Below are positions 7,293-33,623 of a stretch of DNA of 64,000 bases, piece by piece (positions within the stretch are counted from its first letter, which is position 1; each line of letters starts with the position of its first letter). Made by a program: the position numbers and the translations under genes. The DNA comes from an uncultured Acidobacteriota bacterium. Lineage in GTDB: Bacteria; Acidobacteriota; Terriglobia; Acidiferrales; UBA7541. The stretch spans positions 34,724-98,723 of the forward strand of contig CAWGNM010000011.1 of assembly GCA_963823935.1 (NCBI GenBank), in the 5' to 3' direction. A model generated the notes under the pieces. The model was given only the letters and a program-made list of their open reading frames with translations, had not been told where the DNA came from and did no database searches.

Positions 7293-10200
7293 ATGACTGT
7301 CCGGCTTGGCTTCGCGGCGTCGCTTCTGCTTCTTTTCCTTTTTCTCTCATCCGCGTTTCGCCTAGGCGCGCAAGACGCGCCCGCGTCGCCGCAAGCTCCG
7401 CCTACCGGGACGGCCACCGGAGTCGTGCGAACTTCCGAAGGCGTGGGCGTTCCCGGCGCGACTTTGCGCCTGGTGGAAACGGCCACTGGACGCGCCTGGG
7501 TCACTTGGACGGACGAAAACGGCCACTTCGATCTGCCGGCCTTGCCGCAAGGCCACTACCGCATTGAAGTCAGCCAACTAGGATTCGATAACGCCACTCA
7601 GGAGTTCGATCTGGGCGGCACGCCGGCCGCCGTCAATGTGCCGCTCAAGGTGGCATCCCTGCAAAGCCTGGAGACAACGCCGCCGCCGTCGCCCGCGACT
7701 GCGCCGAATGCCGCTCCTGCCGCCGGCGCCGCAGCTTCCGGCAACGCCAGCCAGAACTCCGCGGCGCCAAATTCAAACACTCCGGCTCCCAATCAAGTTG
7801 CGAGTCAAAATCCCCGGCGAGGTCGAGGACAGGGTTACGGCGAAGGCGCAGGCGCGCGCGGGGGCGGATTCGGGCGCAGGCAATTTCCCGGCGGTGGCGC
7901 CGCACCCGGCGCAGGCCAGAATGGTGCGGCGGCGCAGGCCGGATCGACCGCCAGATCGACAACTGGACCAGCAGGCGCGCCAGCCGGGCAGGGCGGGGCC
8001 TTTCAACAAGTGATTCTCAACAATCAGAACCTGGCGGCGGGCGAGGAAGAGCCCGGGCTGGGAGCGGAGGGTGGAGCACCGAATGAAGGAGCGCTGGGGC
8101 AGGCTGCCTCCTCCGACGCAGTCCTGATGAACGGCACCGTGGGCCAGGGAGATCAGAACGCCGGTTTCGCGGGAGCGCCGCCGCCGGGTGGAATCCAGTT
8201 GCAAGGTCCCGGCCAGGCGGGCCAGAACGGCTTTGGAGGCACGGGTGGTAACTTCCAGGGCGGAGTGCCCAGCGCGCAGCCTGGAGGCGCAGCTACCCCC
8301 GGTCTTCCCGGCGGCGGTTTTGGGGGACCTGGTGGATTCGGCGGAGGTGGAGGCGGAGGCGGGGGAGGCGGACGCGGCGGCGCGCCCGCGGCAGCGTTTC
8401 GAGGAGGCGGGGGTGGAGGGCGGCAGGGCCAGGCAGCACGCCCTGGGCCGCAGGGCGTGGCAGCGCTTTGGGGCATGCAGCGCGTCATCCGGCAGAGGAT
8501 CAACCGCGTGCGCGCCAGCTTCTACAATCAATACGGCAACTCCGCATTTGACGCCAAGCCATATTCCATCACCCAAGCGAATCCGCCCAAGATCGGAGCC
8601 TGGACCGAACAGATCGGCGGCAATCTGGGCGGCCCGCTGGTGATTCCTCACCTCTACGACGGCCGCGACAAAACATTTTTCTTTGTCAATTTCGATAGCA
8701 CCTGGGCGCGCAATGCGGTGGATCAATTTTCGACCGTGCCCACGGCGGCGGAACGCCAGGGAAATTTCTGCGGCCTCAGTCCCCAGCCGCAGCTCTATCT
8801 TCCCAATTCCGGGGGCGTTGCCGTGTGCCAGATTCCTTCTTCCATGCTCAATTCCGCCTCCCTCGGGCTGCTGCAATATATTCCCCTGCCCAACGTTCCC
8901 GGCCTGGTGGATAACTTCCATCTGCAAACGAGCGTTCCCACCCAGCAGGATCGCTTCAACGCCCGCCTTCTGCAGACCATCTCGCCGAAATTGAACGCGC
9001 GCTTGATCTACGCCCTCAGCGATTCCAGCAATCACGCCTTTCAATCTTTTCCGGATCTCGAGAGCGACGTCTCCACGCTTCGGCCAGTCCGTGACCGCCG
9101 GCCTCACCGAAAATTTATCGCGCCAATGGATCAACGATTCGCAATTAATTTTCTCGCGCAACCGCGTGCAGACCCTGGACAACTTCGCCTACTCGCAGAA
9201 CGTCGCCGGCGCGCTGGGAATTACCGGAGTTTCTGCGGCGCCCATCGACTGGGAACTCCCGTCGCTTAGCTTTAACAACTTCACGCGTGTGACCCCGGCT
9301 GCGCCTTCCCTGGTGCGGAATCAGTCCTATCGCTTCGTCGATGCGGTTACCTACATGCTCCCCAAGCATACGTTGACGTTTGGGGCGGAAGTTCGGCGCA
9401 TCGAGAACAATACCGATTCCGACCAAACGCCCGAAGGCCTGTTCACCTTCAGCGGGCTCGAGACTGCTCTCGTCGGCCCCAACGGCCAGGCCGTCTCCGG
9501 CACGGGCCTGGATTTCGCGGACTTTCTGCTCGGCGATCCCTACTCCACGAACGAACGCTTTGGAACTCCCAGCTCCTATTTCCGCAGCTGGGGCACCGTT
9601 GGCTACGTCAGCGACGATTGGCGGGCGCGTTCCGATTTCACGCTGCAGTTCGGCGCGCGGTACGAATTCTTCACCCCGCCCACCGAGCTCTACGGCCATC
9701 TATCGAATCTGGACTACGACCCGGCTGCTCAGCAGGTTGCGCTGGTGATTCCGGGCGAGGCCGGACCCTTTAGCGGCGCGCTTCCCAGCGGGCTCATCCG
9801 CCCTGACTACAATCACTGGTCGCCGCGTATCGGACTGGCTTGGAGACCGCCGATCAAATCGCTGCAGGCCAACCACAGCATGGTGGTGCGCGCGGGATAT
9901 GGCCTCTTCTACAACGAGTCCATCTATACCCAACTGCTTTCCGAGTTGGCCAACCAGCCGCCCTGGTCTAACTCCCAACTGCGCATCACCAGCCCCGGCG
10001 ATCTCCTCACGCTGCAAGACGGCTTTCCCTCCACCGTTGCGGCCCAAAACACGGTGCAAAATACCTATGCCGTGAATCCCAACTACAAAGTGGGATACGC
10101 GCAGATCTGGAATCTGTCGGTAGAGACGAACATCGCCCCTAATACCGCTCTCGTGCTCACCTACACGGGAACCAAAGGCAGCGATCTCGATATGCTATTC

Positions 10201-11020
10201 GCGCCAAACCGCCCCGCGCCCGGAAGCCTCACGCCCGCCGGGCCCATCGCCAATGCCGCCGACTTCATCTACGACACTTCGGGAGCGAATTCGATCTACA
10301 ACTCGCTGCAAGTCCGGCTGCAGAAGCGCCTCACGCACGGAATCATGATCAACGGCACCTACACGTATGCGAAATCGATGGACGATGCCAGTTCGATTGG
10401 CGGCGGCACGCCCATCGTGGTGCAGGACGCCAACAATTTGCGGGCCGAGTACGGCCTTTCCTCTTTCGATATTCGCCAGCAGGCGCGCATCAACTATCTT
10501 TACGAATTGCCGTTCGGGCAGGGCCATCGCTTCGCGCAAAAAGGATGGGTCGGCGGCCTCTTTGGCGATTGGCGCTTCAGCGGGAATATCGGCGCGCAGA
10601 CCGGCACGCCCTTTACCGCCGAAGTATTGGGCACTTCGGCGGGGAACACCGGCAGTGGCGGCGTCTTCGCCACTCGCGCCGACCAGATTTGCAATCCCAA
10701 TGCCGGCGGCAGCGGCGCGCCCCTGGATTTCTTCAATACTTCCTGCTTTGTGGTGCCGCCGGCGGGCCAGCTTGGCGATGCCTCGCGCAACACCATCGAA
10801 GGCCCGGGCATGTTTGTGTGGAATGCGCAATTCGCCAAGACGTTCACGCTGGGCCGGGATCGCCAGCATCGCCTGGATCTGCGCTGGGAGGTTACCAAAC
10901 TTGACCAACACGCCCCATTTTACGGGGCTCTCCACGCTGGTGAACTCCACCACTTTCGGAGAGGTCGCCGGCGCCGGTAACATGCGCATGATGGAAATCG
11001 TGACGCGCTTTACGTTCTGA
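7293..11020 (+). pseudogene. CarboxypepD_reg-domain TonB-dependent-receptor-like outer-membrane beta-barrel with a ~270-aa Gly/Ala/Pro/Gln-rich low-complexity insert; frame broken at least twice
   Basis: Signal peptide MTVRLGFAASLLLLFLFLSSAFRLGAQ. The CarboxypepD_reg module reads GTATGVVRTSEGVGVPGATLRLVETATGRAWVTWTDENGHFDLPALPQGHYRIEVSQLGF. The barrel reads FFFVNFD...YGLFYNES...LVLTYTGTKGSDLD and ends in the terminal-Phe motif NMRMMEIVTRFTF (third frame, stop at 11020). Frame changes lie near 9081 and near 10900. Confidence 0.8.
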
Positions 11021-11031
11021 GAGCCGTGAAT

Positions 11032-13234
11032 ATGAGAGACGAAATTCGCCGCTTCCTCGCGCTCATCGCCGCCGCGGCTTTGCTGGCCCCCGCGGGGTGG
11101 GCCCAGAATCCGCAGCAAGCGGCCCCGCCTCCGGCTGCGCCGCTGGCGCCGCAAGTCTCGCCCAACCAGAAAGGAACGATCCGCGCGACGGTCAATTTAG
11201 TGGAGGTCGACGTCGAGGTCACCGATCGCAATGGCAACCCCATCAAAGGGCTGAGCCAGGACCAGTTCAGCGTCGCCGAAAATGGCAAGGATCAGAAGAT
11301 CTCCACCTTCGATTATTACGACGTGGAGAGGCTCGAGAAGGCCGCCGCCGAGGACGTCGCGCCGATCACCATCCCCATCGGCTCGGTCAGCCAGCCCGAG
11401 CAAGTGCGGCAGCAGATTCGCGACCGGCGCTTGATCGTTCTGTTTTTCGATCTCACTTCCTTGCAGCCCAACGATCTCACCCGCTCCACCCTGGCCGCCA
11501 AGCAATTCCTAAGCAAGCAGATGACGCCCGCCGATCTGGTGGGCGTGGTGGCCTTCGGCAATCAACTCAAAGTCGTCGCCGATTTCACCAATGATCGCGA
11601 TCTGCTCAATAGCGCCGTCGACGCGCTGCTGCCCGGCAAGGAGTCGCAGTTGGCGGCCCTGGCCGCGGCCACCTCCACCGGAATTGACGCCGCGACCACC
11701 GAAGACACAGACGCGGCTTTCACCGCCGACGATACCGAGTTCAACGCCTTCAATACCGACCGCAAGCTGATCGCCATCGAGTCGCTGGCCGATTTGCTGA
11801 AAGACATTCCCGGCAAAAAATCGGTGATGCAGTTCACCAGCGGCATCACCCAGACCGGCGAGGACAATCGTTCCCAGCTTCGCGCCACCACCGACGCCTC
11901 CAATCGCGCCAACATGTCCATCTACACCGTGGACTCCCGCGGGCTGCTCGCGGAAATTCCCGGCGGCGACGCCAGCGTCGGCGCTTCGGCCGGCAACGCC
12001 ATGTTCACCGGAGCGGCCGTCTTCCAGCAAAGCCAGTCGCGGCAGGATTCCCGCGAAACTCTGGCCACGCTCGCCTCCGATACCGGCGGGCGCAGCTTCT
12101 TCGATCTCGGAGATCTCGGCCAGGCCTTCCATTCGGTGCAGGCCGATACCGACGGCTACTACCTCGTCGGCTACTACAGCACGGACGCCCAGCACGACGG
12201 CCTGTGGCGCAGCATTCGCGTGAAGCTTGCCGGCGTGCCCGGAGCGCGCATTCGCTACCGCCAGGGTTATTACGCGCCCAAGGATTTCGGCGTCTACACC
12301 ACCGAAGATCGCGAGCGCCAGCTCGAAGACGCCATGCGCTCCGAGACTCCCGTGGTGGAGCTGCCCATCGCCGTGGAATCGGCCTACTTCCGCCTCAACA
12401 ATAAACAGATCTTCGTTCCCATCTCCGCCAAAGTCGCGGCCAGCGCTCTGCAATGGGCGCAAAAGAGCGGCAGGCGGCAGGTGGAGTTCGACTTCGCCGC
12501 GGAGATTCGCGACACGCAATCCAACCGCATCGCCGGCGCCTTGCGCGACACCATTACCGTGCGCCTCGATTCCGAGCGTTACGAAGAGCTGCAGCAGAAC
12601 GCCCTGGTCTATCAGGGCGGGATTATTTTGCCTCCGGGAAATTACAAGCTGAAGTTTCTCGCGCGGGAAAATGAATCCGGCCGCATCGGCACCTTCGAGG
12701 ACGATCTGAAGCTGCCGCGCCGTGCAAGCCGATCGCATGCAGTTGAGCTCCGTGGTGCTATCGAGCCAGCTGGTGGAAGCGCAGAAAACTTCCGAGGTGC
12801 AGACCAAGGGCTTCGCGCCGGATGCCAAGCTCAAGCAGTCGCCGCTGGACGTTGCCGGCGAGCGCATCATTCCCAGCGTAACCCGCGTCTTCACCAATCA
12901 GCAGATGCTCTATATTTTCTTCCAGGCCTACGTTCCGGAGAAAGACGACCCCAATCAATTGCGCGCCGGTCTCGAGTTTTTCCGCAACGGCGCGCGCCTC
13001 AGCCAGACGCCCATGGTCGCGCCCGCGCAAGTGGACGATAAAACGCGCACCGCTTCTTTCCGTATTAGTTTGCCGCTGAATGAAATTATGACCGGCCGTT
13101 ACACCGTGGAAGCCGTGGTGGTGCAGGCGGGCGGCGCTCAGGCTGCATTCGGCCGCAACTACTTCGCGCTGCGTCCCAATGCCGGCCCCGCGGCCCCGCC
13201 CGCGCCGGCTGCCTCCGGTCCAGGCGGAAACTAG
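11032..13234 (+). pseudogene. VWA domain protein of the acidobacterial VWFA-related type (TIGR03436-like); one frame break
   Basis: Signal peptide, then TVNLVEVDVEVTDRNGNPIKGLSQDQFSVAENGKDQKI. VWA-like core reads LIVLFFDLTSLQPND...VGVVAFGNQL...MSIYTVDSRGL...LASDTGGRSFFD. The C-terminal piece continues in the 12722 frame (MQLSSVVLSSQL...GRYTVEAVVVQAGG). The break is near 12718. The start is 5-11 nt after the stop of the upstream barrel gene. Confidence 0.8.
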
Positions 13235-13278
13235 CCCGCCCCGGGACGGGAGAAACCAGAACGACCGGAAGCTGGCCG

Positions 13279-14983
13279 TCAATCGATTACGCTGGTTGCC
13301 ACGCCCTGCACGAGCCCGTACGGAGGAGCCTTCGTTGCGCCGCTCAGCGTGCCCGGCTCGAACTCCACATTGGTCGTTCCTACGCCCGAGCCGTCGTTGA
13401 AGTTGAAGTAGTAAGTCGTGTTGCCGTCGGTGCTCGCGATGTTGACGTTCACAAAGTAGACGTTGCCTTGTGTGAACGGTTCCCCCGCCCCCGCGAACGA
13501 TCTCCACCGCCCCGCTGTCTCCGTAGGAGGGATCCGGACCGTTGACGTTCGGATTGGTGACCGTAAGGTTCTGGAACGTCAAGTTGGCGCCATTGGCCGC
13601 ATAGAATCGCGCGCAAGCGCCGTAACTCCCGCTCTGATCGCTGAACGAGTCCTGAATCAGAATGGCCCGGCGCGTTGGTGTTTCGGTTGGCTCAGTGGAA
13701 CGCGGCCCGATTGTTAATGCCCACGTACCCGTAGCGCTGGTTGCCCGGTGGAATGGTTGCGCAAAACTGTGATGCTGATGGGTTGGGACGTTGAATTCAT
13801 CAGCCAGGGGCTGACCATCAAGCCGTCGCCTGCATTGTCGTTGGTGTAGCAATCGGTGATGTGGATGTCCAGCAGGAAACCGGTCGGGTCGTTTGGCTCG
13901 ATATCGATGCCGCTCTGCGGCGCGGTGCCGCTCGTATTGGTGAAGTAGTCGCGCAGATAGTAGACGTGATTCACGCCGCCGGTGATGCTGGAACCCTGGC
14001 GCCGGTTATTGTTGAAGATGCAGTCTTCCACCGTTACGTTGGTGCTGTTGCCCAGATACAGCCCGTCTCCGCCCGAATCGTTGCAGGAGATGCCGCTGAT
14101 GGTGACGTTCGTGGCGCCCACCACGTACAAACAGTGGCGCTGCTCGCCGCTGGTGTACTGCGCCTTGAGCATGTGAAAGATCGCAGTAGCGGCGCCCGCC
14201 CCGGTAATGGTTACATTCGAAGAGCCGATCGTCAGCATAACGGCGTTTGCCCCATAGCCCGGATTAGCCGTTACGGTCGCGCCAGAATCCACGAACATGT
14301 TCGAGTTGCTGGGAAACGTGAGCGGATTGATGTTGTAGTTGCCGGCCGGTATCTCCAGCGCCTGGCCATTTGCCGCCGTCTGGTTGAGTCGCCGTTTGAA
14401 AAACGTTGGTGTCGTCTCCGCCAAAGCCGGCGTTTCCAAAATGCAGCAGGCTGACGGCATTGGGCGGTGCAGCGGCCGTGATGGTGACGGTCGTGGAGGC
14501 GGACATCGCGTTATTGGCATTGCTTACTGCGGTCACCGTGTCGGTGCCGGCAGCCGAGGGCGCCGTGTAAAGGCCCGACGGAGTGATCGTTCCCGCCATT
14601 GCGCTCCAGGTCACCGATTTATCCGCCGAAGTTCCCTGGACATTTGCGGTGAACTGAACTGTTTTCCACGCAGGCGTCGAAGCCGGCGAAGGCGTCAGGC
14701 TGACCGACATTATGGCCGACGTTCCCGCCGAGTTTAATGAAGAACCGCTAGAAGTCGTGGAAGACGAACCCCCGCTCGCGCCTGAAGTTGCGGAAGCCTC
14801 AGAAACAGGTGAATTGATCGATTTGGAACCTGCAGTCGTTACCCCGCTGCATCCCCAGCCGCAAAGAGCAAGAGTCATGAGCACAAAGAAGAGTAGGAAG
14901 AATGGCGAATTATGTGGCCGAAAATGAGCGGGATAGGAAGCTTGGAGCCATGTCTCAAAACCACTTCGGGACCACTGTTGCAT
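13279..14983 (-). pseudogene. secreted right-handed parallel beta-helix (pectate-lyase-fold) protein with an N-terminal Ig-like domain; frame broken about three times
   Basis: Ig-like part reads MSVSLTPSPASTPAWKTVQFTANVQGTSADKSVTWSA..GTITPSGLYTAP. It is followed by LLHFGNAGFGGDDTNVFQ / RRLNQTAANGQALEIPAGNYNI. Beta-helix rungs read NVTITGAGA, NVTISGISCNDSGGDGLYLGNSTNVTVEDCIFNNNRRQGSSI, and IDIEPND...ITDCYTNDNAGDGL. The C-terminus GNVYFVNVNIAST...VATSVID has its stop at 13279. Breaks lie near 14400 (T5/A5 run), 13735 and 13475. The start is uncertain (14983 or 14878). Confidence 0.65.
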
Positions 14984-15245
14984 CTCCACCCCCTGTGGAA
15001 TCCCCGGGCCGACCAACCTTACTGGTTGCGGCTTGTGAATAAACACCGGCGAATAGGGTAATTAGGGTACAGCTAAGGTGACTACCCTACGGCATCCCCG
15101 GTAGGACAGGTGTCGTCCGGGATACTGTTTACCGGTATGTTATATTTTTGGGGGACTCTCATTTTGTGGAGGCGAGCGAGCGAACCCGTTTGCTCACATC
15201 CCGCAGTGGGAAAAGGCGCTGGAATCGTCGGTTCGGGAGCGCGTA

Positions 15246-17642
15246 CTAAACGGTTTGCGGGTCCGCTTGCAGGCTCATGGTTTCGCGGAGTTTGGCCAGC
15301 AGGTCGTCGCGCTTGAAGGGTTTCGGCAGAAGCTTGACGTGCGGCTCGAGCAGTGTGGCATCCCTGAATCCGGTGTAGCCGGACATATACACCACGCGCA
15401 TCTCCGGCCGCATGGGGGCCAATTTCCCCGCCAGAGCGCGGCCATTCATCTCCGGCATGATGACGTCGGTCAGCAGCAGGTGGATCGGCTCCTGGTATCG
15501 CTGCGCGATGGCAATAGCCTCGTTCGGCGAGTTCGCTTCCAGAACTTTATATCCGCCGGCGGCCAGCAAATCGCGCGTCAGGCCGCGCAGCGCCTCTTCG
15601 TCCTCCACCAGCAGAATGGTTTCCGTTCCTCCCCGGGAGGTTTTTGGCTGGGCAGCCGCTTGCTGCGCGCGAGCGGGTTCGTTCACCACCGGCAAATAGA
15701 TCTGGAAGGTGGCGCCTTGGCCGGGCTGGCTATCCACCCAGATGTGCCCTCCGCTTTGCCGGACGATGCCGTAAACCATGGAGAGGCCCAGGCCGGTGCC
15801 GTGGCCGGCTTGCTTGGTGGTGAAGAAGGGCTCGAAAATGCGCGCCTGAGTCTCCGCATCGATACCCATGCCGGTGTCCGCGATGGCCAGCAACACATAG
15901 GATCCGGGGCGCTGAGGCTGGCGATGCCGCACCTGTTCTTCGTCCAGCACCACGTTTTTCGTCTCGATGGATAATCTGCCGCCGCTGGGCATGGCGTCGC
16001 GGGCATTCACCACCAGGTTCATGATCACCTGTTCGATCTGTCCTCGATCCACTTTCACCGATCCCAAGCGGGAATCGAGCTGCGTTTTCAACTCGATATC
16101 TTCGCCAATCAGGCGGCGCAACATTTTTTCCAGCTCCAGAACCACGGCGTTGAGGTCCAGAACCTTGGGCTCCAGCAGTTGCTGGCGGCTGAAAGCCAGA
16201 AGCTGGCGGGTGAGAGCGGTGGCCCTGTCTCCCGCCTTTTTGATCTGTTCGCAATTCCTGTGCAGCGTTCCGTTGGGGGGCAGTTCGCGATCCACCAGGT
16301 CGCAATAGCCGGTGATCACGGTCAGCAGATTATTGAAATCGTGCGCGATCCCTCCGGCCAGCTGCCCAATCGCTTCCATTTTTTGAGCTTGCCGCAGCTG
16401 CTTCTCCAGAATTTTTTGTTCGGTGACGTCCTTCATCAGCGCGATCACGCATTTCTGTCCTGCCACCTCGATGATTTCCGCCGAATCGAAGCCGATGCGC
16501 TTCTCCCCGCACTTGGTGCGAAAGGCAATCTCCAGATCGCGCACCGAGCGCCGCGTTTCCAGCGCCTCCACGAATCTCAGGCGGTCCTCCGGCGTTTGCC
16601 AGAGATTCAGTTCCGAGGAGGTGTGGCCCACCACCTCTTCTCGCCGATAACCGGTCACGCGAAGGAAACTGTCGTTCACATCCAGGAAGCGCCCGTCGGA
16701 GACCGTTGTGATCGTGATCGGCTCGGGGCTGGCGTTAAACGCCTTCTGGAATCGTTCTTCCGCTCGCTTGCGGTCGCTCACGTCGCGGGTGATGGATACC
16801 GCGCCGACGATCTGGTTATTCGCATCCTTGACGGGCGACGTGGTAATGGAAACGTCGATCCGCTGGCCGTTCTTGCGGACGTGAATGCTCTCGCACAACT
16901 GAACGCTCTCGCCGCGCTTCAGCTTTTCGAGGCTGGCCGGCAGTTCATCGGCCTGGTCCGCCGGGATCAGAAAATCTCTCGGCCGTCCCAGCACCTCGCT
17001 CGCGGTATAGCCGTAAACGGCTTCCGCGCCGGCATTCCAGCTGACGATTGTGCCGTCCAGCGCGTGGAGCACGATGGCATCGCTCGAAAATTCAATGATC
17101 GAGGCCAGTTGCGAGAGCCTCTCGGCAATGCGCTTGCGTTCCGCCACCGCGCTCTTCATCTCTTCATACGCGCCCACCAGGTCGCGCGCCCGTTGCGCCA
17201 GCCGCTTCTCGCGTTGCGTGCCCCCGGCGAATTCCGCCTGCGCCCGCAAAAACTGCACGAACGCGCGCCAGGAGTGGTTGTCCATCAAAAGGGGCAGCAT
17301 CACTCTGGCCACGGCGCTCTGAGCGTCGAACGGTTTTGCCGGATCGACCACCGCTTGCAGCGAATGCGTGTATACCTGGGCGCAGGAGCACCGCGCGGCG
17401 GCCGCATCGAGCAGCTCTCTTTCCTGATCGCTGGCCGCCTGTTCGCGAATCTTCAGGATGAGGGCGGAGATTTTCTCGCTGTTCTCCACGCGCTCCAGCG
17501 CCAGTGGAGCCGTTTCATCCTGCGCGGGTATCAAAATGGCCGTGGTGAGCTGAATGTTACGGTCGGAATACTGAAGCACCTCCTCCGCCATTTTCAGTTT
17601 GGCGTTGAGGGCGTTGCAGCCGGGGCTGGGGTCTGGGGACAC
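15246..17642 (-). CDS. hybrid sensor histidine kinase/response regulator with two PAS domains
   Basis: Intact 798-aa ORF. H-box GGIAHDFNNLL, N-box NLVVNARDAM, G1 DTGMGI, G2 GTGLGLS, and a C-terminal receiver ILLVEDEEALR...LLLTDVIMPEMNG. PAS-like segments read AIVLHALDGTIVSWNAGAEAVYGY and ITITTVSDGRFLDVNDSFLRVTGY. No obvious transmembrane segment. Confidence 0.9.
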   Translation of the reverse strand: MSPDPSPGCNALNAKLKMAEEVLQYSDRNIQLTTAILIPAQDETAPLALERVENSEKISALILKIREQAASDQERELLDAAAARCSCAQVYTHSLQAVVDPAKPFDAQSAVARVMLPLLMDNHSWRAFVQFLRAQAEFAGGTQREKRLAQRARDLVGAYEEMKSAVAERKRIAERLSQLASIIEFSSDAIVLHALDGTIVSWNAGAEAVYGYTASEVLGRPRDFLIPADQADELPASLEKLKRGESVQLCESIHVRKNGQRIDVSITTSPVKDANNQIVGAVSITRDVSDRKRAEERFQKAFNASPEPITITTVSDGRFLDVNDSFLRVTGYRREEVVGHTSSELNLWQTPEDRLRFVEALETRRSVRDLEIAFRTKCGEKRIGFDSAEIIEVAGQKCVIALMKDVTEQKILEKQLRQAQKMEAIGQLAGGIAHDFNNLLTVITGYCDLVDRELPPNGTLHRNCEQIKKAGDRATALTRQLLAFSRQQLLEPKVLDLNAVVLELEKMLRRLIGEDIELKTQLDSRLGSVKVDRGQIEQVIMNLVVNARDAMPSGGRLSIETKNVVLDEEQVRHRQPQRPGSYVLLAIADTGMGIDAETQARIFEPFFTTKQAGHGTGLGLSMVYGIVRQSGGHIWVDSQPGQGATFQIYLPVVNEPARAQQAAAQPKTSRGGTETILLVEDEEALRGLTRDLLAAGGYKVLEANSPNEAIAIAQRYQEPIHLLLTDVIMPEMNGRALAGKLAPMRPEMRVVYMSGYTGFRDATLLEPHVKLLPKPFKRDDLLAKLRETMSLQADPQTV

Positions 17643-29512: not shown

Positions 29513-32500
29513 ATGATTGAAAACAAAGCCTTTGGCCATTTCGTGGACGGCAATGTCTGCGGGGGTTTCCTGCTTCGCCGCCGGCCGTGCGCGCTTGGCC
29601 TCTTTCTTCTCCTGGTTCTCTCGGTCTGTGGCCTGGATGTGGCTCCTGTGCACGGGCAATCCAGCGGCCAGCCACCTACCATCGTTTCCCAGACGCCTTC
29701 GCCCGGCGCGACTGGGCAGGCATTAAATTCCCGTGTAGCCGCCACATTCAGCGAGGCCATTCAGCCGTCTTCAATCACGTTCGTGTTGGTCGATTCCTCG
29801 AACTCTGCCGTGCCCGCCACGGTAAGTTACGATCCCGCGTCCTACACCGCGACGCTCACGCCCAAGGCATACCTATCAACGTCGCAAACCTATACGGCGA
29901 CCCTAAGTGGCGCAACCGATCCGGCCGGCAACGCCATGACTGGCTCTCTGATCTGGTCGTTTTCCACCGGCTCGATGACCGTGGGCACGCCCACGGTGGA
30001 CGCCAACGGCGTCGAAAGCTATCCCGTAACTTCGGTCTTCCAGGGCCCGCAATCGATGACCGTCCGGGTTCTCGAACCCACCAGCCCGGCCCCCGGACAG
30101 CCGCACCGACTGCTTTACGTGCTCCCGGTGGAGATCGGCGTCACGAGTTTGTCGTCCACTTATAGCGACGGATTGGAGGAGTTGCGCCTGCTGGGTATTC
30201 CCAACCAGTTCAACATGACATTGATTGCGCCCTCGTTCAATTACATGCCCTGGTATGGCGACAACGTCACCAATTCGCAGGAGCGGATGGAGAGCTTCAT
30301 CCTCAACGATCTGATCCCGTTCGGCGACACTTTTGCGAAAGGCACCGAAATCCCGCCGCGCTTGGCCATCGGCTTCAGCAAGTCCGGCAACGGCGTCCTG
30401 TTCCTGATTCTCCGGCACCCTGACGTCTTTAGCGCCGTCGCCGCTTGGGATTCTCCCGCTCAGTTGAACAACTTGAACACCTACGCTCCCGACCTCCAAA
30501 CGAACTTCGGCACCCAAGCGAACTTCAATCTTTACAACATTCCTTCTCTGGTTGCGTCCGGAGGAGCGCCTTTTACCCAGCAGAATCGTTTGTGGGTCAG
30601 CGGAGACCAAGGCTTGTATACCTCGCAGATGGCGCAGTTGGATAGCCAGCTGACCGCAGCTTCCATCCCGCACACTTTTTTGGCCGGCGGCTCCCGGGCG
30701 CATAGTTGGCACAGCGGCTGGTTGCAGGGAGCGGTCACTGCGCTCGATGCCGTATCCATCGTCCGCAGCAACGGCCAGCCATCGGGCGTGCTTGCTCCGG
30801 GAATTACGCAAACCACCATCAGCCTCAATACGGATCAGAAGGCCACCTGCCGTTTTGCGACCACCGCCGGCATCCCCTACGCTTCCATGCCCAACCTTTT
30901 CTCGACCACTGGCGGTACCTCCCATTCAACGGTTGTTACCGGACTGACCAACGGCGCGATATTCAGCTTCTTCGTCCGCTGCGAGGACTCTCTTGGCAAT
31001 TCGAACCCCGAAGATTTCTCCATTGTTTTCTCCGTGGCCAAACCCGGCGATACGACGCCACCGGTGCGCTCCAACGGACAGCCCAGTGGTGTGCTGGCAG
31101 CGGGAACGACGCAGACGAATCTGAGTCTGGCTACGGATGAGAATGCCACCTGCCGGTATGCCACGGTGGCAGGCACTGCGTATGCGTCGATGGTGAATAC
31201 TTTCACGGCGACGGGGGGAACTTCCCACTCGACCGCGCTCAGCGGGCTCGCGAACGCAGGGACCTACAGCTACTACGTGCGGTGCCAGGACGCCTCCGGC
31301 AACGCCAACGCGGACGACTTTGCGATCACCTTCTCTACGGTGGTCTCCGACCCGGCGTCCAGCAGCTTTGCTGGCGTAGAAAGTCCTCTCTCCGAGGGAG
31401 GCATGTGGAACAAGCCCGGGGCTTGGGCCAGCATGGCCAAGAACAACGGGGCCTATGGAACCGGGGCGAACATGGCTGGTCTGGCCTCGCCGATGGTGAG
31501 TTCCGATCAGTTTTCGGAAATCACCTTCGATCAAAATCTGGGCTCGACGAGTTGGGTAGGAGTGACCACGCGGGTTCAAGGAGCCGGCAACGGCAGTTGC
31601 TATCTGGCCATCGCCTATAACGGAGGGGTATGGCTGTATCGCACGGATGACACCGGAACACTGAGTTGGACGCAGTTGGCCGGGGCGAATGTGGACATCA
31701 CGGCGGCGCCGAGGGACCTGCGGCTGGAATCGCAGATAGCGAACCACCGGGTGTATTTCAACGGAGTGGAACTGATCAACTACACGGAGAGCGCGCGGTC
31801 TACACCACGGGGCAGCCCGGGGTAGCGGCATACCAAAACGCATCGACGGCTAAGATTCTGACGTTCACGGGCGGCTCGTTGAGCGGCTCCGGCTCGGGCT
31901 CGGCCCCGCGCACCATGCCCCCGGTACGGTCTAACGGACAGCCCAGTGGCGTGCTGGCAGGGGGAACGACGCAGACGAATCTGAGTCTGGCTACGGATGA
32001 GAATGCCACCTGCCGGTATGCCACGGTGGCAGGCACGGCGTACGCGTCGATGACGAACACCTTCAGCAGCGACGGGTGGAACGGCCCACTCGACTGCGGT
32101 CAGCGGCCTGGTGAGCGGAGGAACCTACAGCTACTACGTGCGGTGCCAGGACAGCCTGGGCAACACCAATCCCGACGATTTTGCGATCACCTTCACGGTC
32201 GGGCTGATCGGGTCCGACCCGGCATCGAGCAGCTTTGTGGGCGTGGAGAGTCCTCTCTCCGAGGGAGGCATGTGGAACAAGCCCGGGGCTTGGGCCAGCA
32301 TGGCCAAGAACAACGGGGCCTACGGAACGGCGGCAAACATGGCTGGCCTGGCCACGCCGATGGTAAGCGCCGATCAGTTTTCGGAAATCACCTTCGATCA
32401 AAATCTGGGCTCGGCGAGTTGGGTGGGAGTGACCACGCGGGTTCAAGGAGCCAACAACGGCAGTTGCTATCTGGCCATCGCCTATAACGGCGGGGTATGG

Positions 32501-33623
32501 CTATTTCGCACGGATGACACCGGGACGTTGAGTTGGACGCAGTTGGCCGGGGCAAGCGTGGACATCACGGCGGCGCCGAGAGATCTGCGGCTGGAATCGC
32601 AGGGGGCCAGCCACCGGGTGTATTTCAACGGAGTGCAACTGATCGACTACACGGAGAGCGCGCCGGTCTACACCACGGGACAGCCTGGGGTAGCGGTATA
32701 CCAAAATTCGACGGCCAAGATCCTGACGTTCACGGGCGGCTCGTTGAGCGGCTCCGGCTCCGGCCCGCGCGTCACGCCACCGGTACGGTCTAACGGGCAG
32801 CCCAGTGGCGTGCTGGCAGCGGGAACGACGCAGACGAATCTGACTCTGGCTACCGACGAGAATGCGACCTGCCGGTATACGACGGTGGCCGGCACGGCGT
32901 ACGCGTCGATGACGAACACCTTCAGCACGACGGGTGGAACGGCCCACTCGACCGCGGTCAGCGGCCTCGCGAGCGGAGGGACCTACAGCTACTACGTGCG
33001 GTGCCAGGACAGCCTCGGGCAACACCAATCCCAACGATTTTGCGATCACCTTCACAATCGGGGCGGCGAGTTCCGATCCGGCATCGAGCAGCTTTGTGGG
33101 CGTGGAGAGTCCTCTCTCCGAGGGAGGCATGTGGAACAAGCCCGGGGCTTGGGCCAGCATGGCCAAGAACAACGGGGCCTACGGAACGGCGGCAAACATG
33201 GCTGGTCTGGCCACGCCGATGGTGAGCGCCGATCAGTTTTCGGAAATCACCTTCGATCAAAATCTGGGCTCGACGAGCTGGGTGGGAGTGACCACGCGGG
33301 TTCAAGGAGCCAGCAACGGGAGTTGCTATCTGGCCATCGCCTATAACGGAGGGGTATTGCTGTTTCGCACCGATGACACCGGGACGTTGAGTTGGACGCA
33401 GTTGGCCGGCGCAAGCGTGGATATCACGGCGGCGCCCAGAGATCTGCGGTTGGAATCGCAGGGGGCCAGCCACCGGGTGTATTTCAACGGAGTGGAACTG
33501 ATCAACTACACGGAGAGCGCGCCGGTCTACGCCACGGGGCAGCCTGGGATAGCGGTATACCAAAACGCATCGACGGCGAAGATACTCACGTTCACGGGCG
33601 GCTCGTTGAGCGGCTCGCCGTAG
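29513..33623 (+). pseudogene. large secreted multidomain protein: SbsA/Big_5-like Ig domain, esterase/alpha-beta-hydrolase-like domain, one FN3/Ig-like module, then 3 x (FN3/Ig-like + ConA/LamG-like jelly-roll module); three 1-nt frame breaks
   Basis: Signal-like RRRPCALGLFLLLVLSVCGLDVAPVHG. The Ig part reads IVSQTPSPGATGQALNSRVAATFSEAIQPSSITF...ATLSGATDPAGN. The hydrolase part reads LLYVLPVE...RLAIGFSKSGNG...FSAVAAWDSP...GGSRAHSWHSGW. The repeats carry PPVRSNGQPSGVLAAGTTQTNLSLATDENATCRYATVAGTAYASM...GGTYSYYVRCQDSLGN and SDPASSSFVGVESPLSEGGMWNKPGAWASMAKNNGAYG...SCYLAIAYNGGVWLFRTDD...HRVYFNGV. Breaks are at about 31796, 32069 and 33016. Confidence 0.75.
31057..33620 (+). repeat. three tandem, near-identical ~860-bp coding repeats
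   Basis: Units start at 31057, 31918 and 32776 (periods 861 and 858 bp). Long stretches are identical, for example acgcagacgaatctgagtctggctacggatgagaatgccacctgccggtatgccacggtggcaggcac and ctctccgagggaggcatgtggaacaagcccggggcttgggccagcatggccaagaacaacggggcc. Confidence 0.9.

Follow-up and report, generated by a model that had tools for sequence, protein, structure and literature searches.

The wider PF00756 group includes esterase D/S-formylglutathione hydrolase and the Ag85 mycolyltransferases. Acidobacteriota rank among the most abundant bacteria of soils, and the machinery with which they degrade polymers outside the cell is poorly characterized. The carbohydrate-binding module (CBM) family CBM66 is represented by the fructan-binding C-terminal module of the Bacillus subtilis levanase SacC (4azz, 4b1l, 4b1m), and the designations CBM66 and DUF1080/PF06439 refer to the same domain (PMC5673643). 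Here, we describe a gene that joins an esterase of the first kind to tandem modules that resemble the second. It lies at 29513..33623 on the + strand of a 64,000-nucleotide (nt) stretch from an uncultured Acidobacteriota bacterium (contig CAWGNM010000011.1), which we refer to as the window. With a probability of about 0.62, we read it as encoding a functional secreted or cell-surface esterase, broken only by three consensus indel errors, whose beta-sandwich modules would bind a glycan while the esterase de-esterifies the bound polymer.

As assembled, the gene measures 4111 nt, and its reading frame is interrupted. An open reading frame (ORF) of 770 amino acids (aa) occupies 29513-31825 (+), and the ORF listing and three-frame translation showed that the product resumes in frame 2 at ~31796, in frame 0 at ~32070, and in frame 1 at ~33017. 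We located the frame changes by mutual alignment of the three DNA units of the repeat array (MAFFT) and by comparison with two close relatives: a C is missing after 31795 (31795..31796), turning GCGCCGG into GCGCGG where relatives have GCGCCGG or GCGTCGCGG; an extra G is present at 32069; and an extra C is present at 33016. Once repaired, the gene comprises 4110 nt (1369 codons plus a stop codon at 33621-33623), and the 1369-aa protein contains, in order, a signal-like N-terminus, a Big_5 domain, an alpha/beta-hydrolase, a free FN3-like module, and three units that each consist of an FN3-like module and a beta-sandwich of ~185 aa. A first-pass annotation, made from the sequence alone, had postulated one gene with three 1-nt indels, and the unit alignment and the two relatives indeed fix exactly three; the motifs on which it had relied (GFSKSG, AHSWH, ATCRF...FFVRCED, and ATCRY...YYVRCQD) all occur in the repaired protein. 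An exact database look-up of the 770-aa ORF returned no match, as expected for a frameshifted product. Three antisense ORFs of 201-340 aa (29903-30925, 30926-31843, and 32958-33563, - strand) overlap the gene, recur with the units, and are low in complexity and rich in Arg, Gly, and Pro; we regard them as spurious ORFs of a kind typical for 60% GC DNA and did not count them as genes.

The protein begins with a signal-like region (29513..29656), read from the sequence, in which RRRP is followed by the hydrophobic stretch CALGLFLLLVLSVCGL and then by VHG and, directly after it, QSS. This arrangement resembles a Sec-type signal and hence would direct secretion or export of the protein. The next domain, Big_5 (SbsA-type Ig-like; residues 53-152, 29669..29968), matches Pfam PF13205 over the whole model (E 6.2e-18; 65.9 bits, cut-off 23.6), in agreement with the SbsA/Big_5-like Ig domain that had been suggested for this position.

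Residues 153-414 (29969..30754) constitute an alpha/beta-hydrolase of the esterase D/CE1/Ag85 type, with a predicted catalytic triad of Ser289 (30377-30379), Asp365 (30605-30607), and His397 (30701-30703). All three residues are invariant in 42 homologues that span 54-98% identity. The Pfam family PF00756 ('Putative esterase') scored 19.8 bits with the full protein and 23.3 bits with the isolated domain, on either side of the gathering cut-off of 22, and many homologues bear a precomputed PF00756 match; an NCBIfam search gave no usable family match. When we compared a profile of the 42 sequences with the PDB, the domain matched S-formylglutathione hydrolase (3e-5) and a Bacteroides ferulic acid esterase (6e-5), as well as a soil-metagenome esterase and the corynebacterial mycolyltransferase Cmt1. 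An AlphaFold (AF2) model of the domain reached a predicted local distance difference test score (pLDDT) of 92.6, and the top Foldseek matches of this model were 3i6y, 7yvt, Ag85C, 5vol, and 7xrt (E 3e-13 to 1e-10, template-modeling [TM] scores 0.6-0.7). In the alignments, GFSKSGNG falls on the nucleophile elbow GHSMGGHG, SGDQ on the acid motif, and AHSW on the catalytic histidine motif, such that the triad corresponds to the GxSxG, GDD, and HSW motifs of 7yvt/7xrt. The profile, the model, and the structural matches bear out the putative esterase that had been noted from the letters alone, and indicate that residues 153-414 very probably form an active serine esterase belonging to the esterase D/CE1/Ag85 group.

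The beta-sandwich modules were best placed by structure. An AF2 model of one FN3-plus-sandwich unit had a pLDDT of 87, and the best superimposable Foldseek matches of the sandwich were to the CBM66 of B. subtilis levanase (E 1.2e-7 to 1.4e-6; target-normalized TM scores 0.66-0.71; 19-21% identity), with a root-mean-square deviation (rmsd) of 3.6-4.4 A over ~165 columns. The next structural matches were galectins, the galactocerebrosidase lectin domain, and the galectin-like protein 1oq1. The top Foldseek match, mycobacteriophage baseplate protein 8zdo, was set aside together with other multi-domain matches as non-superimposable (rmsd 19.6 A for 8zdo). At the level of the predicted fold, the earlier description of these modules as ConA/LamG-like jelly rolls is right: the CBM66 and galectin matches place them among ConA/lectin-like folds. 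A scan of 1.84 billion representative proteins with the sandwich module yielded just 242 clusters at E <= 1e-3, and the family is therefore small; its distant relatives have no Pfam match.

The smaller modules of the protein, four in number and ~96 aa each, are FN3-like, as had been proposed. The free module, IG0 (ATCRF...FFVRCED; residues 415-510, 30755..31042), is 64% identical to IG1, the first module of the array. The FN3-like module forms a seven-strand beta-sandwich in the predicted model, and the assignment is supported by weak FN3-type matches: Pur_ac_phosph_N (PF16656) gave 33.3 bits for the four modules summed (cut-off 30) and 20.2 bits for a single module, and a profile comparison matched the FN3 domain of chitinase A1 at E 0.04. 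Two Cys residues are invariant in every one of these modules, which suggests that the modules are disulfide-bonded and, by extension, that the protein would be extracytoplasmic.

Our data directly support the gene structure, the domain folds, the conservation of the triad and of the number of three units, and the error-prone nature of the assembly. For the function of the protein, we propose the following. After export via the Sec-type signal, the protein would be secreted or would reside at the cell surface. By analogy with known modular carbohydrate-active enzymes (CAZymes), its three beta-sandwich modules would attach multivalently to a glycan polymer, and the FN3 modules would serve as spacers; this polymer might be a polysaccharide of plant or microbial origin or an exopolysaccharide of the cell itself. 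The esterase would then strip the bound polymer of ester substituents, for example acetyl or feruloyl groups.

Several observations weigh against this proposal. The structural neighbors of the esterase include non-carbohydrate enzymes, namely S-formylglutathione hydrolase and mycolyltransferases. In profile searches, the sequence match of the sandwich to CBM66 chains fell below significance (E 0.22-0.39), PF06439 scored 17.8 bits for the three modules summed (cut-off 26.8), and a single module had no Pfam match at E <= 1. DUF1080/PF06439 moreover includes proposed catalytic proteins. Finally, the neighborhood of the gene (pntAB, the SUF operon, and htrA) has no polysaccharide-utilization genes; G6PD, 6PGD, and a major facilitator superfamily (MFS) transporter gene also lie near the gene, and this context gives no functional hint. 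Because the sequence similarity to CBM66 is sub-threshold, the ligand specificity of CBM66 is not transferable to the sandwich module.

The first of these observations raises the question of which ester the enzyme uses. It could act on a non-carbohydrate ester (lipid, cutin, suberin, polyester, or siderophore) or serve as an Ag85-like acyltransferase, in which case the repeats would merely tether the protein to the envelope or matrix. The Ag85C/Cmt1 mycolyltransferases, an esterase from an oil-degrading bacterium, and S-formylglutathione hydrolases score like the ferulic acid esterases, which speaks for this alternative. However, the profile matches include two Bacteroides ferulic acid esterases in which the Asp and His motifs are aligned, and the attachment of lectin/CBM-like modules here, and of sugar dehydrogenases in relatives, favors carbohydrate polymers; we therefore consider a non-carbohydrate substrate unlikely.

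A second alternative concerns the sandwich modules, which could themselves be catalytic (DUF1080-type glycosidases, or enzymes similar to 3-keto-disaccharide hydrolases) or mediate protein or cell-surface attachment, making the protein adhesin-like or multi-catalytic. PF06439 is the sole, faint Pfam signal of the sandwich, and DUF1080 proteins have been proposed as glycosidases; in addition, the module is fused elsewhere to other catalytic domains (a sugar dehydrogenase dependent on pyrroloquinoline quinone [PQQ] and a metallophosphatase), and proteins of ~200 aa that consist of the sandwich alone exist. Yet near-identical tandem copies in variable number are typical of binding modules and untypical of catalytic domains, and among solved structures a non-catalytic CBM comes closest, with lectins next. 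On balance, a catalytic or adhesive role for the sandwich seems to us improbable, to about the same degree as a non-carbohydrate ester, and we retain the reading of a polysaccharide-directed esterase with glycan-binding modules. The stand-alone proteins (P0151, P0161, P0175, P0177, and others) are 31-43% identical to JR2, the second sandwich of the array, with the module starting at about residue 4. P0151, the sole stand-alone protein that we scanned, has no Pfam family. These proteins may represent the ancestral form of the sandwich module.

The reading of the gene as functional also depends on the origin of its three frameshifts. We identified an intact 1369-aa orthologue (P0001; 91% aa identity) on L001, a 381-kb Joint Genome Institute metagenome contig. 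The synteny of L001 matches that of the window (pntAA-pntAB-pntB and a 254-aa gene upstream, the SUF Fe-S operon downstream), and its flanking DNA is 95% identical to the window flanks. The GTDB species-representative metagenome-assembled genome (MAG) 'uncultured Acidobacteriota bacterium MFD05377.bin.2.119' (L002; CAWFVE010000003.1) contains an intact 1370-aa ORF in DNA that is 98-99% identical. Both relatives hold the frame at all three of the window's indel sites. We then found, by comparison with the intact L001 orthologues, 11 further frame-breaking 1-nt indels in five neighboring genes of the window: five in pntAA (25845, 26198, 26331, 26333, and 26437), one in pntAB (26777), two in pntB (26898 and 27715), one in the 254-aa gene (hyp254; 29109), and two in htrA (41598 and 42082). 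The translated fragments of these five genes are 95-100% identical to the intact orthologues. The neighbor indels fall in two stretches; the SUF operon (33.6-40.1 kb), G6PD, and the MFS gene are free of them. Inspection by eye revealed no shared motif or homopolymer context at the window indels. The Microflora Danica long-read project is the source of the nearest named genomes, and the nearest of these is a Nanopore-only MAG with one round of Medaka polishing.

Genes under strong purifying selection would not all be dead at once, and the indels of the window are therefore most likely consensus/sequencing errors, among them the three frameshifts in the esterase gene; because neighboring essential genes are indel-rich as well, no biological explanation is needed. 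Were the gene instead a true pseudogene, the three frameshifts would be real mutations of this strain. That they are found in the window only and outside long homopolymers could be taken in this sense, as could a second MAG, MFD10064.bin.2.48 of Microflora Danica (L003), whose orthologue (87% aa identity) is likewise frameshifted once inside the repeat region, within unit 2. We nevertheless regard decay of the gene as quite improbable: the repaired protein shows 91-99% identity to intact orthologues and no stops or other decay, the 11 indels in pntAA, pntAB, pntB, hyp254, and htrA interrupt genes whose fragments are nearly identical to intact ones, and the closest named genomes are lightly polished Nanopore-only assemblies. 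Programmed frameshifting was rejected, as the sites differ in context, their directions are mixed (-1, +1, +1), two close relatives lack them, and unrelated neighbors have similar indels. Consensus error thus remains our preferred explanation, and gene calls in this window need indel-tolerant methods. Near the N-terminus, L002 reads GNVRGDSPACRRP (10040-10080) where the window (29552-29590) and P0001 read GNVCGGFLLRRRP and GNVCGAFPIRRRS; this difference looks like a compensated indel pair, as if the reference MAG too carried small consensus errors.

We also examined the three units of the array. Unit 1 (31058..31902) consists of IG1 (31058-31345) and JR1 (31346-31902), with the missing base after 31795 inside it; unit 2 (31918..32761) of IG2 (31918-32206, with the extra G at 32069) and JR2 (32213-32761); and unit 3 (32777..33620) of IG3 (32777-33062, with the extra C at 33016) and JR3 (33072-33620). 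The first residues of the units are 516, 803, and 1089, so that successive units lie 287 and 286 aa (861 and 858 nt) apart; raw spacings in the assembled DNA range from 860/859 to 867/859 nt. At the DNA level, units 1 and 2 are 89.4% identical, units 1 and 3 89.1%, and units 2 and 3 93.8%, with longest identical stretches of 75, 74, and 128 nt, respectively, far above chance. The unit alignment accordingly reproduced both the periods and the long shared stretches that the first-pass annotation had reported. No extra copy of any module was found elsewhere in the window, and Tandem Repeats Finder, for which the longest period searched was 500, reported nothing.

From the similarity of the copies, it had been supposed that the amplification was very recent and that the copy number was variable or mis-assembled; neither supposition is supported at this locus. 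Three units are present in four independent assemblies (the window, L001, L002, and L003), and all four have the position-specific linkers STVVSDP, TVGLIGSDP, and TIGAASSDP. It is correspondingly very hard to maintain that the three copies reflect assembly expansion or repeat collapse and that the true number differs. Repeats of 860 nt at 89-94% identity may confuse short-read assemblers, and the copy number does vary elsewhere in the family, but four independent assemblies each with three units and identical linkers speak strongly against such an artifact, and with differences at 6-11% of sites between units, reads can readily be placed.

The same comparison bears on the age of the array and on gene conversion. 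In quartets of window and L001 units, sites of the orthology type outnumbered those of the concerted type at 37:11 (units 1 and 2), 31:6 (units 1 and 3), and 14:4 (units 2 and 3). Orthologous units of the two loci are 90.8-93.6% identical, somewhat below the flanks (95%). In a run-length permutation test, concordant runs were longer than expected in a few cases (best p = 0.001), and one of nine pairs survived multiple-test correction. We rejected strong concerted evolution in the window clade on these grounds, since orthology dominates the quartet patterns and a single pair is significant. Of the ongoing gene conversion that had been suggested, only a weak signal is left: short conversion tracts are possibly occasional, but not dominant, in the window's array. 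Because orthologous units group together, the triplication, on these alignments, predates the split of the window, L001, and L003 lineages, and the array is stable at three in this clade; the tandem array would have arisen by unit duplication before these lineages parted.

Across the family, the picture is more dynamic. We mapped the window's modules onto 120 homologues and found the arrangement esterase-(FN3-sandwich)n to be common among Acidobacteriota metagenomes and MAGs, with Acidobacteriaceae, Bryobacteraceae, and 'Acidoferrum' represented. Many proteins have a single unit (~600 aa); others have two (~900 aa) or three (~1100-1200 aa), and P0004 and P0006 have four. Variants carry runs of 4-6 FN3 modules, join the esterase to the sandwich without FN3, or are fused to a PQQ-type sugar dehydrogenase or a metallophosphatase. 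Within single proteins, unit identity ranges from 59-63% (P0017 and P0026, in which orthologous positions are 84-86% identical) to 99-100% (P0010 and P0028). In DNA, L008 (a Bryobacterales MAG, 10810-13400) has three 852-nt units that are at least 99% identical, L004 (an Acidobacteriaceae MAG, 10787-13600) has four 855-nt units that are 88-95% identical, and the units of L006 are 75% identical. One 90%-identity cluster contains both P0009 (1181 aa, three units) and P0268 (1466 aa, four units), of which the latter has exactly one unit more; P0009 is also at least 90% identical to the L004 gene product, yet has three units where the latter has four. The difference between P0009 and L004 is an apparent copy-number polymorphism, or a repeat collapse in one assembly. 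As judged from these sequences, the array expands, contracts, or homogenizes within the family, and the same unit would have been repeatedly gained, lost, or homogenized. The idea of an expandable binding array, put forward in the first-pass annotation, is upheld at the family level (1-4 units, and three versus four in one 90% cluster), but not for the window clade, which is stable at three.

Some relatives have additional parts. In L003, the ORF at 12514-16095 ends in a C-terminal extension of ~620 aa after the third sandwich (~14250-16095), made up of about eight Ig-like repeats of ~90 aa (SVSLNPTSVTGG...TVNP); this extension is found neither in the window nor in L001 or L002. P0040, P0044, P0046, P0047, and P0133 combine the esterase and an FN3-FN3-sandwich tail with Big_5 and PF07995 (PQQ-type glucose/sorbosone dehydrogenase, GSDH), and their esterase sits between or after the GSDH-matching stretches. 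The GSDH fusions may point to a sugar-oxidizing partner activity.

A bolder interpretation is that the sandwich is the founding member of a new CBM family, mostly of Acidobacteriota, outside Pfam, and kin to CBM66 at the fold level only. The FN3-sandwich cassette would then be a mobile avidity array that grows and shrinks rapidly and is placed on varied catalytic heads (esterase, PQQ sugar dehydrogenase, metallophosphatase), with its copy number tuned by unequal recombination between strains, as the three versus four units in one 90%-identity cluster and the units of at least 99% identity in one lineage would suggest. We offer this as a tentative suggestion that is more doubtful than not.

Databases name members of this family 'hypothetical protein', 'esterase/lipase superfamily enzyme', or similar, and our literature searches on CBM66 or DUF1080 with esterase turned up no description of this architecture. 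The family is widespread in Acidobacteriota metagenomes, with hundreds of homologues, and pairs a probably active esterase with a binding-type module that lies outside Pfam. Once its ligand and ester substrate are defined, one CAZy-type and one CBM-type family could be added, which would help the annotation of soil metagenomes, and the repeat array illustrates how copy number evolves naturally in a binding array. The frameshifts and the near-identical repeats are accounted for by assembly error and ordinary tandem-module evolution. The gain is incremental, in annotation and enzymology; no concept is changed, and a specialist would not be surprised.

Among described systems, the esterase agrees with PF00756/CE1 esterases such as BT_4077 (7xrt) and Bacint_04212 (5vol) in fold and aligns with them at the nucleophile elbow and the SGD and HSW motifs, but it is just 13-19% identical to the solved PF00756/CE1 members, and its elbow is GxSxS (GFSKS) where CE1-type esterases have GxSxG. 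The CBM66 of SacC is the closest solved single-domain structure to the sandwich module; the weak profile alignment between them extends over the C-terminal half and takes in the GQ(P)G strand, and both are attached to a catalytic domain. Unlike CBM66, the sandwich occurs here in three tandem copies, each behind an FN3-like module. The architecture had at first been placed outside characterized families. Its modules do fit known classes (esterase D/CE1-type and CBM66-like), and the whole is therefore a familiar combination of a catalytic esterase and repeated binding-type modules; what stands of the earlier view is that this specific family is uncharacterized. The protein shares its layout with modular CAZymes and with surface proteins that carry tandem near-identical CBM or Ig repeats: binding-type repeats, spaced by FN3/Ig modules, come after a catalytic domain, the repeat number varies among relatives, and repeats are more alike within a gene than between lineages. 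In contrast to those systems, the order Big_5, esterase, FN3, and three FN3-plus-CBM66-like units is without a characterized representative.

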